Source of the DNA: a virus
Lineage: Duplodnaviria; Heunggongvirae; Uroviricota; Caudoviricetes
Virus record (IMG/VR): IMGVR_UViG_2579778535_000002
DNA length: 13,955 nucleotides
Direction: 5' to 3' (one strand)
Below, one piece after another: positions 508-13,360 of this stretch (its first letter is position 1; every line of letters starts with the position of its first letter). The translations under genes and the position numbers were made by a program. A model generated the notes under the pieces. It was not told the origin of the DNA. It worked only from the letters and a program-made list of their open reading frames with translations, and searched no databases.

Positions 508-534
508 AATAAAAAAGGCGCCATTTCTGGCGCC
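508..534 (-). terminator. Intrinsic (rho-independent) terminator between J and lom
   Basis: On the minus strand: GGCGCC-AGAAAU-GGCGCC (6-bp G/C stem 534..529 with 522..517, 6-nt loop) immediately followed by UUUUUUAUU (plus-strand A-run 516..508). It lies 20 nt after the J stop (556..554) and before the lom start (486). The plus-strand version lacks a T-run, so it is unidirectional. Confidence 0.6.
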
Positions 535-3966: not shown

Positions 3967-3991
3967 CGACAAAACCGCCCGGGGGCGGTTT
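3967..3991 (-). promoter_or_regulatory. Stable GC hairpin in the I-J intergenic region (possible attenuator or RNA-stability element)
   Basis: Minus-strand RNA AAACCGCC-CCCG-GGCGGUUU (8-bp stem incl. 5 G:C, tetraloop) followed by UGUCGUUUAUGG, then a GGAG/GAG SD-like stretch and the J ATG. Part of the flanking U/A run is consumed in the stem, so the terminator assignment is weak. Confidence 0.3.
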
Positions 3992-6325: not shown

Positions 6326-8901
6326 CGTCCACCTCCGGAGAACAGACCACCATCGCGCATCTGCCCGGTCACAACATCCATTGCCGCCTTACGGGCTACG
6401 TCATAAACAGCCTTCAGTGCCTGTGGCCCTATCTGACCGTTCGTGCCGTCGTTGTTAATCACCACATGGTTATTCTGCTCAAACTTCCCGGACGCCTGCG
6501 ACCGGCTGTCCGCCAGGCTGCCCGGTGTACCGACATAACCACCGGTGGCATAGCCGCGCATCAGCCGGTAGAGATTCCCCACGCCAATCCGGCTGGTTGC
6601 CTCCTTCGTGAAGACAAATTCACCACGGTGAACAATCCCCGCTGGCTCATATTTGCCGCCGGTTCCCGTAAATCCCCCGGTCGCAAAATGGAATTTCGCC
6701 GCAGCTGCCTGAATGGCTGTACCGCCTGACGCGGATGCGCCGCCACCAACAGCCCCGCCAATGGCGCTGCCGATACTCCCGACAATCCCCACCATTGCCT
6801 GCTTAAGCAGAATTTCTGTCATCATGGACAGCACGGAACGGGTGAAGCTGCGCCAGTTCTGCTCACTGCCGGTCAGCATCGCCGCCATATTCTGTGCAAT
6901 ACCATCAAAGGTCTGCGTGGCAGCACTTTTAACCTGCGACATACTGTCCGTGGCGCTCTCTTCCCACTCACTCCAGCCGGACCTGAGGCCTGCCATCCAG
7001 CTCCCGCGAAGCTGGTCTTCAGCCGCCCAGGTCTTTTTCTGCTCTGACATGACGTTATTCAGCGCCAGCGGATTATCGCCATACTGTTCCTTCAGGCGCT
7101 GTTCCGTGGCTTCACGTTCTGCCTGCCGGTCAGTCAGCCCCCGGCTTTTCGCATCAATGGCGGCCCGTTTTGCCCGTTGCTGCTGTGCGAATTTATCCGC
7201 CTGCTGCGCCAGCGCGTTCAGGCGCTCCTGATACGTAACCTTGTCGCCAAGTGCAGCCAGCTGGCGTTTGTACTCCAGCGTCTCATCTTTATGCGCCAGC
7301 AGGGATTTCTCCTGTGCAGACAGCTGGCGACGTTGCGCCGCCTCCTCCAGTACCGCGAACTGACTCTCCGCCTTCCACAAATCCCGGCGCTGCTGGCTGA
7401 TTTTCTCATTTGCTCCGGCATGCTTCTCCAGCGTCCGGAGTTCAGCCTGAAGCGTCAGCAGGACAGCATGAGCATTGTCTTCCTGACGATCGCCCGCAGA
7501 CACCTTCACGCCGGACTGTTTCGGCTTTTTCAGCGTCGCTTCATAATCCTTTTTCGCCGCCGCCATCAGCGTGTTGTAATCTGCCTGCAGGATTTTCCCG
7601 TCTTTCAGTGCCTTATTCAGTTCCTCCTGGCGGGCGGTATATTTCTCCAGCGGTGTCTGCAGGCGTTCGTAAGCCTTCTGCGCCTCTTCGGTATATTTCA
7701 GCCGTGATGCCTCAGACTCGGCCCGATCTTTTGCTGCCATCTCACTGGCCTTTTCAAGATCGGCCTGCAACGTGGCGGCTGAAAGCCCAAGTCGCGCATT
7801 CTCTCTCTTCTCCCATGCCCCCCGGAGATTGGCAAGAAATGCTGAAGTTTTACCGCGCCGGTGGCTTCGGCTCTGATACCACTGCCATTTTTTATCCGCT
7901 TCATCAAAAGCCTTTTCAGCTTTGGCGAGCATATCTGCAGAGGAGTCCGGGCGGCCAATATCCAGCACCGCATCCCACATGGATTTGAATGCCTGTGCAG
8001 TCTTGTCTGCCCAGGTCTCCAGCGTACCCATGTTATCTTTCAGTTTACGGGTCTGGTCATCAAACCCTTTCGTTGCGGCCTCGTTCGCCGCCTGCAATGC
8101 CCCGGCCCCATCGCCGGAACGCTGCAACTGAGCAACATACGCAATCTGTTCCGCCGTCACGTTATGGAACTGGCGCGCCATCGCCGTCAGCCCCGACGTC
8201 GGGTCAGTGGTCAGCTTCCCGAAGGCTTCAGCGACCTTGTCCACCTCCACGCCGGATGCAGAGGAGAAACGCGCCACACTCTGGCTGATTGCCTCAAACT
8301 GCTCACCACCACGCACACCGGCATTCACCAGCGCCGTCAGTGACTCGCTGGTCTGGTTAAACGTCAGCCCTGCCGCCTGCCCTGCTCTGGACAGGACCAG
8401 CATACGATCTGCCGTCAGTCCCGCCTGATTACCGGAAAGGACCAGCGTTTTGTTGAAATTAGACAGGGTTGAGTCACCCTGATACCAGGCATACGCCAGC
8501 GCACCGGTCGCCACCGCCAGCGAAGTGATACCCACCATCGGCAGGGTGATCGCACCGGCAAGCCCCCTGAACATGGGGATCATCCCGCCGAAGGAGTCCT
8601 TCACCTGACCACCCTGTTGCAGCAGGATCAGCCACGGACTTTGCCCCCCTGCAAGCTGTGTGGCCACGTCGGTGAACTGCGCAGGCAGCATACGCATGGC
8701 GGCTTTATACTGCCCGACGGAAATCCCCGCTTTCTGTGCAGCCAGCGCCTGCCGGTTCATTGACTGTTCAACGACTGCCGCTGTTTTTTTCGCATCACTT
8801 TCCGTACCGGAAAAATGACGCCTGACTCTGGCCATCTGCTCGTCAAATCTGGCCGCATCCAGACTTAAATCAACGACCAGATCGCCTACCGGTTCAGCCA
8901 T
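6322..8901 (-). CDS. H: Tail tape measure protein H
   Basis: 859-aa ORF (lambda gpH is 853 aa), recognised sequence (MAEPVGDLVVDLSLDAARFDEQMARVRRHFSGTESDAKKTAAVVEQSMNRQALAAQKAGISVGQYKAAMRMLPAQFTDVATQLAGGQSPWLILLQQGGQVKDSFGGMIPMF...). Long Ala/Gln/Glu/Lys-rich predicted coiled-coil centre and Gly-rich C-terminal region. GGAGGAG SD upstream of ATG 8901. The start overlaps the end of the T frame by 8 nt. Confidence 0.97.
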   Translation of the reverse strand: MAEPVGDLVVDLSLDAARFDEQMARVRRHFSGTESDAKKTAAVVEQSMNRQALAAQKAGISVGQYKAAMRMLPAQFTDVATQLAGGQSPWLILLQQGGQVKDSFGGMIPMFRGLAGAITLPMVGITSLAVATGALAYAWYQGDSTLSNFNKTLVLSGNQAGLTADRMLVLSRAGQAAGLTFNQTSESLTALVNAGVRGGEQFEAISQSVARFSSASGVEVDKVAEAFGKLTTDPTSGLTAMARQFHNVTAEQIAYVAQLQRSGDGAGALQAANEAATKGFDDQTRKLKDNMGTLETWADKTAQAFKSMWDAVLDIGRPDSSADMLAKAEKAFDEADKKWQWYQSRSHRRGKTSAFLANLRGAWEKRENARLGLSAATLQADLEKASEMAAKDRAESEASRLKYTEEAQKAYERLQTPLEKYTARQEELNKALKDGKILQADYNTLMAAAKKDYEATLKKPKQSGVKVSAGDRQEDNAHAVLLTLQAELRTLEKHAGANEKISQQRRDLWKAESQFAVLEEAAQRRQLSAQEKSLLAHKDETLEYKRQLAALGDKVTYQERLNALAQQADKFAQQQRAKRAAIDAKSRGLTDRQAEREATEQRLKEQYGDNPLALNNVMSEQKKTWAAEDQLRGSWMAGLRSGWSEWEESATDSMSQVKSAATQTFDGIAQNMAAMLTGSEQNWRSFTRSVLSMMTEILLKQAMVGIVGSIGSAIGGAVGGGASASGGTAIQAAAAKFHFATGGFTGTGGKYEPAGIVHRGEFVFTKEATSRIGVGNLYRLMRGYATGGYVGTPGSLADSRSQASGKFEQNNHVVINNDGTNGQIGPQALKAVYDVARKAAMDVVTGQMRDGGLFSGGGR

Positions 8902-11842: not shown

Positions 11843-12238
11843 TTATTGCATTCTGGCCAGGCCGCGCGCTGTCATTTCAGCTGCCACACCGGCAGAGACA
11901 CGGAACGCCGTTCCCGGCAGCACAAATGCCACAGCCTCATCCCGCGTGGCGTGAAGTGCATCAGTATGCAGCGTCACCAGTGCCACAACCGTGACCAGAG
12001 CAGCCGTATCAGTCACGGTATCCGTCTGCGCTGATACCACCTCATTTTCATGTCCGGTCAGCGCATTTTCCGGGCTGACAGACGTGTCCAGACCGGCTGC
12101 GTCATCCGTGTCATCAAGCTCCTCTTCCAGCTCTGCCACACGGAGCGCCAGTTCTTCTTTCGTCCCCGTCAGGCTGACATCACGGTTCAGTTGCTCACCC
12201 AGCGTCCGGAGACGGGCAATCAGTTCATCTTTCGTCAT
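11843..12238 (-). CDS. FI: DNA-packaging / head completion protein FI
   Basis: Recognised lambda gpFI sequence starting MTKDELIARLRTLGEQLNRDVSLTGTKEELALRVAELEEELDDTDDAAG... (132 aa). I take the ATG at 12238..12236, which is preceded by GGAGGA with a 5-nt spacer. The ORF-track start at 12277 lies inside the E-FI hairpin and adds 13 residues not present in lambda FI. Confidence 0.9.
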   Translation of the reverse strand: MTKDELIARLRTLGEQLNRDVSLTGTKEELALRVAELEEELDDTDDAAGLDTSVSPENALTGHENEVVSAQTDTVTDTAALVTVVALVTLHTDALHATRDEAVAFVLPGTAFRVSAGVAAEMTARGLARMQ

Positions 12239-12250
12239 GGATTCCTCCAC

Positions 12251-12279
12251 AGAGAGAAAATGGCCCCGAAGGGCCATGA
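12251..12279 (-). promoter_or_regulatory. Stable UUCG-tetraloop hairpin followed by a U/C-rich tract, directly 3' of the major capsid gene E
   Basis: Minus-strand RNA after the E stop (UAA 12282..12280): UC-AUGGCCC-UUCG-GGGCCAU (perfect 7-bp stem, plus 12277..12260) then UUUUCUCUCU (plus 12259..12251), then the FI SD and ATG. Confidence 0.5.
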
Positions 12280-13305
12280 TTACGCCAGTTGTACGGACAC
12301 GAACTCATCAGGATCAGCCAGCAGCATCAGCGGTGCTGACTGAATCATGGTGAACTCTCGCGCCGGATCGCCGGATGTCTTCCAGTTTTTCGGATAACGG
12401 GGAGACGCATTAATACCCTCACTCAATGCATCCGCATCCTGAATACAGCCATAGGTGCGCAGACCGCGTGCATGAGTGTTCCCCAGCACCATCGTGTTGT
12501 CCGGCAGGAAGTTCTTTTTGACGCCGTTTTCCACGTACTGTCCGGAATACACGACGATGGCCACATCGCCATACATCCCCTTATAGGACACCGCTTTGCC
12601 CAGGTCTTTTACCGCTGTCTCCAGTTCGGAATGAGAGCCGCGACGGGTATCCAGCTTCTCCCTGACGGCTTTGAAGGAACGGAACAGCGCCCAGCCTTTC
12701 GGGTCAAACACGATGATATTCACCACGCCGCTGGCGTTCAGCGCGTAGGCTTCGATATCGTCGGTCGGGTCATACGTGGACTTGTCACGCTTGCTCCACT
12801 CCGTGCCGCCGGACTGCGTGATGTTGTTCGCCGCACTGCGGCCCATATCCACCTCAACCGGATCGAAGGCTTCACCGGTCATGGTGTATTTGCCCTTGAG
12901 CACGGCAGAAACTGCCTGCATCTCTTCGACCTGAGCAATGGCCAGCTCTTCGTCACGCATGTTCTGCATGATGATGCGACGGCGGCGGTAAGCCGGGTCC
13001 GCCAGATTCTGCGGATCTTCATCCGGCAGGCGACGCAGGGTCATCTGCGGATTCACCTCATGCTTGGGTTTGACATATCCCGGCGTAAATTCAGAGGTGG
13101 AGCCGCCACGGGAGCGGATAACCTCACCGGAAACAATCGGCGAAACGTACAGCGCCATGTTTACCAGTCCCGGAATTTGTGAGAGATAGACTTTCTCCGT
13201 AGTGAAGGGATAGCTCTCACGGAAAAAGAGACGCAGAAACAGCGGATCAAACTTAAATTTCTGCTCATTTGCCGCCAGCAGCTGGGCGGTTGTGTACATC
13301 GACAT
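12280..13305 (-). CDS. E: Major capsid protein E (HK97-fold)
   Basis: Recognised lambda gpE sequence starting MSMYTTAQLLAANEQKFKFDPLFLRLFFRESYPFTTEKVYLSQIPGLVNMALYVSPIVSGEVIRSRGGSTSEF... and ending ...MIQSAPLMLLADPDEFVSVQLA (341 aa from the ATG at 13305). The ORF-track start at 13332 adds 9 residues (MRLFLRDFF) that fall in the D-E hairpin/U-run and are not part of lambda E. Confidence 0.95.
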   Translation of the reverse strand: MSMYTTAQLLAANEQKFKFDPLFLRLFFRESYPFTTEKVYLSQIPGLVNMALYVSPIVSGEVIRSRGGSTSEFTPGYVKPKHEVNPQMTLRRLPDEDPQNLADPAYRRRRIIMQNMRDEELAIAQVEEMQAVSAVLKGKYTMTGEAFDPVEVDMGRSAANNITQSGGTEWSKRDKSTYDPTDDIEAYALNASGVVNIIVFDPKGWALFRSFKAVREKLDTRRGSHSELETAVKDLGKAVSYKGMYGDVAIVVYSGQYVENGVKKNFLPDNTMVLGNTHARGLRTYGCIQDADALSEGINASPRYPKNWKTSGDPAREFTMIQSAPLMLLADPDEFVSVQLA

Positions 13306-13339
13306 AAAAAAATCCCGTAAAAAAAGCCGCACAGGCGGC
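13306..13339 (-). promoter_or_regulatory. GC hairpin plus U7 run (intrinsic-terminator-like) in the D-E intergenic region, just upstream of the E start
   Basis: Minus-strand RNA after the D stop: ...CACUAAA-GGCCGC-CUGU-GCGGC(U) (5 G:C pairs plus a G:U, plus 13339..13326) followed by UUUUUUUACGGGAUUUUUUU and then the E AUG. Confidence 0.45.
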
Positions 13340-13360
13340 CTTTAGTGATGAAGGGTAAAG

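Follow-up and report, generated by a model that had tools for sequence, protein, structure and literature searches.

A conserved terminator-like RNA hairpin following the major capsid gene E in a lambda-type late operon

In a lambda-type phage sequence, the major capsid gene E is followed by a short GC-rich RNA hairpin with a U-rich tail, and comparative evidence identifies this pair as the conserved unit of the E–FI spacer. The element is probably a conserved, leaky Rho-independent-terminator-like hairpin that ends the capsid cistron within a Q-antiterminated operon and modestly enriches E RNA.

Setting and structure of the E–FI hairpin

The window, which is the whole stretch of 13,955 nt that was analysed (IMG/VR record IMGVR_UViG_2579778535_000002), carries on its minus strand a lambda-type head–tail morphogenesis module comprising Nu3/C, D, E, FI, FII, Z, U, V, G/T, H, M, L, K, I and J. 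Identity in the E–FI region is 98% with Escherichia phage 2G7b and about 94% with lambda, and the E protein shares 100% identity with the 2G7b capsid protein and 97% with lambda E. Q itself lies outside the window. The closest complete phage encodes the Q antiterminator upstream of its lysis genes, and the window genes were therefore assigned to a lambda-type Q-antiterminated late operon. The E–FI junction is composed of the following features.

12280..13305, minus strand: major capsid gene E (341 aa), the upstream cistron, recognised from its translation and its identity to 2G7b and lambda
12278..12282, minus strand: E stop codon UAA (12282-12280) with the 2-nt spacer UC (12279-12278)
12260..12277, minus strand: RNA hairpin AUGGCCC-UUCG-GGGCCAU, with a 7-bp stem, five G-C pairs and a c(UUCG)g loop, from folding and conservation
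12277-12271, 12270-12267 and 12266-12260, minus strand: the 5' arm AUGGCCC, the loop UUCG and the 3' arm GGGCCAU of this hairpin
12251..12259, minus strand: pyrimidine/U-rich tail UUUCUCUCU, a weak U-tract directly 3' of the stem
12236..12248, minus strand: FI translation start, with Shine–Dalgarno (SD) sequence GGAGGA (12248-12243) and AUG (12238-12236), at positions homologous to those annotated in lambda and 434

An earlier note on this DNA had described a hairpin two nucleotides past the E stop, and in minus-strand coordinates it lies exactly there, with an identical arrangement in lambda. The free-energy calculation that the note had proposed gave −12.9 kcal/mol for the isolated hairpin (z = −3.5), and none of 200 shuffles was equally stable. 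Within a 108-nt context the stem pairs with a probability of about 0.92–0.95. The UNCG loop is closed by a C-G pair (CCC-UUCG-GGG) in both the window and lambda. A terminator scan of the window detects the hairpin, and its architecture is that expected of an intrinsic terminator, with a GC-rich stem in the range of about 5–14 bp and a loop in the range of 3–8 nt on the transcribed strand. Its location, in a sense-strand intergenic spacer immediately past the E stop, is likewise that of an intrinsic terminator. As a stable stem-loop directly 3' of the more expressed cistron, here E, it also has the placement of an intercistronic 3' stabiliser. An Rfam scan of the whole window returned no family at the gathering threshold. 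One detail of the previous description needs correction, in that the tail given there, UUUUCUCUCU, repeats the U that closes the stem; the stem is followed by three U, not four.

Thermodynamic stability was rejected as evidence when taken by itself. The window contains eight perfect hairpins of at least 7 bp with loops of 3–8 nt, where about five are expected, and 18 terminator-like matches compared with 12.2 ± 3.9 in shuffles. The 71-nt fold around the site is unremarkable (z = −0.75), and at the lambda locus 8 of 33 control blocks are as stable as the lambda hairpin by energy alone. The probability of such a hairpin arising in a random spacer of 41 nt is 0.007. By its sequence alone the E–FI hairpin is not significant, and the case that it is other than a chance feature rests on conservation across relatives.

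The 13-kb operon stretch contains only four gaps longer than 15 nt (D–E, E–FI, I–J and after J), all other gene junctions measuring −103 to +15 nt, and each of the four holds a GC-rich tetraloop hairpin with a T-rich tail. The three besides E–FI are listed here.

13319..13343, minus strand: D–E spacer, terminator-like hairpin AAAGGCCGC-CUGU-GCGGCUUUU followed by further U, −12.2 kcal/mol
3972-3991, minus strand: I–J spacer (60-nt gap), terminator-like hairpin AAACCGCCC-CCGG-GGCGGUUU and then UGUCGUUUAU, a weak U-tract
517-534, minus strand: canonical terminator GGCGCCA-GAAA-UGGCGCC with U6, 19 nt past the J stop codon (554)

The post-J terminator is strong and has the top terminator score in the window. 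The D–E hairpin is more canonical than the E–FI hairpin and is conserved in lambda, N15 and phi80; its N15 orthologue, located after the D homologue, is annotated as a putative rho-independent terminator. Distant E-family phages do not generally carry a hairpin past the decoration gene.

Conservation of the hairpin among relatives

Selection on the stem was assessed in 104 lambda-like loci, representing 61 haplotypes, which were picked by the FI start motif only. Two of the 14 stem sites vary in these loci (π = 0.026), and both changes preserve pairing; the earlier note had proposed conservation in lambdoid spacers as a check. In the flanking genes, 66 of 102 third codon positions of E and 72 of 102 of FI are variable (π = 0.10–0.11), which makes stem diversity about four-fold lower (Fisher p = 1.1e-4). 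The loop varies at two of four sites, with a π of 0.06 against 0.026 for the stem. The tail varies at six of nine sites, a synonymous-like rate (p = 1.0 against third positions). The commonest stem variant, present in more than 13 loci, converts the closing A-U to G.U (GUGGCCC...GGGCCAU); this change retains the sense-RNA hairpin while destroying both the DNA palindrome and the antisense hairpin. These comparisons clearly point to a sense-strand RNA structure under purifying selection.

N15 and phi80 are homologous to the window in nucleotide sequence exactly as far as the E stop. Although their spacers do not otherwise align with it, both phages have GUGGCCC-NNNN-GGGCCAC a few nucleotides beyond this end. 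Enterobacterial prophages with 85–88% E identity carry the stems CGGCCC/GGGCCG, UGGCCC/GGGCCG, GCGGCCC/GGGCCGU and AACGGCCC/GGGCCGUU. When 21 non-redundant lambda/N15-clade spacers are aligned without gaps, 96.6% of the cells assigned to the stem are paired, compared with only 33–57% in slid registers, and the covariation score was reached by none of 500 shuffles. Five core pairs are invariant across the 21 spacers. The variation falls on the outer pairs, one of which is UA in 13 spacers, CG in four, UG in one and other combinations in three, while the second is GU in eight, AU in seven, GC in four and other in two. The Erwinia prophage L134 was excluded from the pair count because MAFFT placed its hairpin out of register; its stem, UGGUCCC/GGGGCCA, would contribute more double changes. 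On this alignment the covariation is real but limited to two pairs, and the invariant core is uninformative on structure.

Beyond the lambda/N15 clade, a strong GC-rich hairpin starting −2 to 18 nt from the capsid stop was found in about 15 of 19 diverse E-family phages (25–88% identity), the spacers of which have no mutual sequence similarity. The rest have no spacer or weak structure only. In 12 of the 19, the post-capsid block is matched by at most two of about 50 same-locus control blocks (binomial p = 6e-11), and five of six further prophages at 37–43% identity behave likewise. Post-capsid hairpins are also present in virulent, non-lysogenic phages, such as the Chi-like SPN19, AH2, Suzuki and phiAxp-2.

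Several of these distant, non-homologous hairpins have familiar caps. UUCG loops close those of Suzuki (L087), AH2 (L088) and MA11 (L092), and GNRA tetraloops those of 569R10 (L086) and phiAxp-2 (L093). The recurrence of such caps suggests repeated selection for compact, stable loops, not for one loop sequence.

Two further observations concern the sequence collection. Lambda E at 94–100% identity occurs on short, low-coverage contigs from unrelated organisms, among them Chromatium, Shewanella, Paenibacillus, Bradyrhizobium, Kitasatospora and Akkermansia (L105–L120 and many of L136–L174); these contigs are almost certainly lambda DNA contamination of assemblies, not prophages. In IMGVR_UViG_2698536339_000001 (L045:1501-3034), the first 488 nt of E are tandemly duplicated before a complete E, which may be a genuine partial duplication or may have arisen in assembly.

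Class of element and known counterparts

The UUCG tetraloop highlighted in the earlier note is present in the window and in lambda. It is not a conserved feature, since relatives carry other loops, including UUAG (at least eight loci), UUCU, UUCA, UCCG, UGCG, AUUC, UGUC, UGUU and UUUC. The window tail UUUCUCUC has five U in eight positions, three of them in the first four, and is accepted by a simple scan. Over the 21 non-redundant relatives, the 8 nt after the stem contain 5.05 T on average, and only 1.7% of the sense-strand 8-mers in the window reach five T. The conserved unit is therefore the stem together with a tail that is U-rich in composition rather than fixed in sequence, not the UUCG loop.

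The element has terminator architecture, a GC-rich 7-bp stem leading into a U-rich tail, in line with the partial terminator considered in the earlier note. Some orthologues are intrinsic terminators of textbook form, including that of L167 (8 bp followed by U8), phage D2 (7 bp followed by U6) and 569R10 (U6). A classical terminator discriminant, used here for ranking only, places the window at +7.6, lambda at −3.5 and N15 at −12.5, against +42 for the post-J terminator and +40 for L167. By sequence, the E–FI element thus classes as a weak or borderline Rho-independent-terminator-like structure, one of four in the late operon.

Other classes of element were considered and set aside. A dispersed REP-like repeat was ruled out because the motif is single-copy in the window, and an RNase III site was ruled out, the 7-bp stem being far below the length of an RNase III substrate. 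A recoding signal linked to the stop codon is unlikely, given that the distance between stop and hairpin varies from −2 to 18 nt across phages. An antisense or bidirectional terminator was also ruled out; the plus-strand version is followed by GAUUACGCC without a U-tract, and the G.U variants become A.C mismatches on that strand.

The lambda E–FI hairpin, at lambda 7163-7180, has the same stem, loop and 2-nt distance from the E stop as the window, and its tail is UGUUUCUCU where that of the window is UUUCUCUCU. The lambda records (J02459 and OR974322) and the 434 record have no annotation at the hairpin site. The N15 record (GenBank AF064539) labels as a "putative rho-indep. transcription terminator", which is a prediction only, the stem-loop at 7053-7073 that separates gene 8 (major head) from gene 9. 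This stem-loop is in the orthologous place, following a capsid gene with 88.6% identity, and shares the GGCCC/GGGCC core, the 7-bp stem, the loop length of 4 nt and a pyrimidine-rich tail that continues into the SD of the FI homologue. It differs from the window in its closing pair (G-C instead of A-U), its loop (AUUC instead of UUCG), its distance from the stop (9 nt instead of 2 nt) and its weaker U-tract (CUUUCUGG). With this orthologue annotated, the hairpin and its kind are already recognised, and the present finding is mostly confirmatory.

Comparable arrangements are known from unrelated systems. In T7, the leaky terminator T-phi follows the major capsid gene 10 and lifts capsid mRNA over that of the downstream genes, and weak terminators also follow phiX174 gene F and f1 gene VIII. 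Unlike the window element, T-phi acts on T7 RNA polymerase, has been experimentally characterised and operates without antitermination. At malE–malF (a REP), in the Rhodobacter puf operon and at papB–papA, a stem-loop lies 3' of the more abundant cistron and is proposed as a barrier to 3' exonucleases. The evidence in those cases is half-lives measured for the individual RNA segments, whereas the window element is known from sequence, has a U-rich tail and is single-copy instead of REP-type. Inefficient terminators are cited as balancing expression in T7 (PMC9163698), and the late gene clusters of SPP1 are bounded by predicted stem-loop terminators (PMC6316719). In the P22-like phages L and P22, predicted terminators lie past the procapsid/coat module within an antiterminated late operon that has a single promoter (PMC8022706). 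Their suggested functions are partial termination or the stopping of polymerases without antitermination, although the authors state that the roles are not known (PMC8022706). These terminators share with the window element their place at the end of the capsid block, but the capsid family is unrelated and the sequences are non-homologous.

Possible roles and the FI start

As a leaky terminator-like hairpin, the E–FI element would act on only part of the transcription that reaches it. During lytic growth, Q-modified polymerase would mostly pass the site, and the folded hairpin would define or protect the RNA 3' ends made by the minority of polymerases that terminate. In addition, 3'-to-5' exonucleases entering from cleavages in the approximately 14 kb of downstream tail-gene RNA would stall at the stem. 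RNA of E and the upstream genes would as a result become modestly more abundant or longer-lived than RNA from FI onward. The expected effect is modest, at most about two-fold, because the V gene lies downstream and translation initiation sets most ratios. The major tail protein V is needed at about half the copy number of E, and its gene is downstream of the E–FI site. Sampson and colleagues, in work from 1988, reportedly ascribed the ratios of lambda late genes to translation initiation. Since V is required in quantity, strong termination at this site cannot be the means by which E is set apart in dosage from FI, FII, Z and U. It is also unlikely that termination is efficient during lytic growth, as one study describes Q-loaded polymerase as precluding terminator hairpin formation in the RNA exit channel (PMC9388147).

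The proposal in the earlier note that the hairpin sets the dosage of capsid against downstream proteins is plausible but overstated, given V, Q antitermination and translation initiation. The hairpin does lie directly 3' of the gene for the most abundant head protein. The stem also begins 2 nt past a very heavily translated stop codon, and terminating ribosomes repeatedly melt it, which counts against the leaky-terminator reading. A literature search found no experiment on the function of the E–FI hairpin and no 3'-end map of lambda late RNA, and a search with the hairpin sequence gave nothing relevant.

The same architecture could belong to a true terminator that stops only Q-free polymerases, those of spurious or read-in transcription in a prophage or in early infection, and has no bearing on late dosage. 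The conserved U-rich tail, the distribution of four such elements along the late operon and the presence of Q in the closest phage are all consistent with such an insulator, which is also one of the two possible roles named by Casjens and co-workers (PMC8022706). We consider it unlikely, as weak U-tracts insulate poorly and an element after the capsid gene is also found in the virulent phages SPN19, AH2, Suzuki and phiAxp-2, which favours a capsid-linked role over prophage silencing. That the palindrome arose by chance, or is a DNA-level protein-binding site without RNA function, is highly improbable. The near-expected number of perfect 7-bp hairpins in the window (eight against about five), the 71-nt z of −0.75 and the lack of an Rfam match would fit this explanation, yet it does not account for a stem about four-fold less diverse than synonymous sites, for the compensatory and wobble exchanges in relatives, or for a G.U variant that spares only the sense-RNA hairpin and not the DNA palindrome. 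Nor would it predict that non-homologous hairpins recur at the equivalent place in distant phages.

Control of FI translation is a further alternative, in which the hairpin and adjacent structure organise the 41-nt spacer, either separating E termination from FI initiation or limiting FI initiation. A small hairpin, GUGGA-GGAA-UCCAU (12237-12250, minus strand, −4.3 kcal/mol), covers half of the FI SD and the AU of its AUG; by this model it may reduce FI translation. Within it, SD nucleotides 1–3 and the AU are paired with P > 0.9, and the two changes that relatives show in its stem (C to U, A to G) still allow wobble pairs. The minimum free energy folds of N15 and phi80 also pair the SD, through an outer helix with CUUCC just past the stop codon, and the placing of control at translation initiation, which Sampson et al. 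reportedly argued in 1988, would agree with such a role. Against this, the main hairpin leaves the SD untouched, and the structures that occlude it are weak and clade-specific. The SD and AUG are under constraint in their own right and hence provide no independent covariation. In distant phages the hairpin keeps to −2 to 18 nt from the stop and is remote from the SD that comes next. The conserved U-rich tail would also be left unexplained. We therefore regard FI translation control as improbable.

Returning to the leaky terminator-like hairpin, the D–E and E–FI hairpins together bracket E on both sides, and a more speculative extension can be drawn from this. The E cistron, bounded by two read-through hairpins, might form a doubly protected segment that outlives the endonuclease-cut 26-kb late RNA and supplies part of the capsid excess by stabilisation, not termination, an arrangement that would be convergent in E-family phages. 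We hold this to be doubtful. If the E–FI hairpin does measurably raise capsid mRNA over downstream RNA, control at the RNA level would join translation initiation, to which textbooks ascribe the dosage of lambda late genes. It would also, if true, answer the open question of Casjens and colleagues on the purpose of terminators in antiterminated late operons.

The position of the hairpin also bears on how FI is annotated. The ORF track of the window begins FI at the ATG at 12277, inside the stem, a start that the earlier note had judged unlikely and that is not the one FI uses. The annotated FI start of lambda corresponds to 12238, and the lambda and 434 records both place FI at the homologous downstream AUG, with a ribosome-binding site. 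The ORF from the in-stem ATG is in the same frame as the AUG at 12238, and in relatives the in-stem ATG is replaced by GUG, CUG, CCG or GCG. Similar starts are found in other records. The phi80 RefSeq entry (NC_021190, L003:1231) begins the FI homologue at the GTG of the hairpin 5' arm, with a better, SD-preceded start at L003:1267. Phage D2 (OM475427, L085:1748) begins it at an ATG in the hairpin loop, with a good SD and ATG (MATKE...) 34 nt downstream of the annotated start (L085:1782). The hairpin accounts for this recurrent mis-annotation of FI-type starts within the stem-loop, in the phi80 RefSeq entry, in D2 and in the ORF track of the window.
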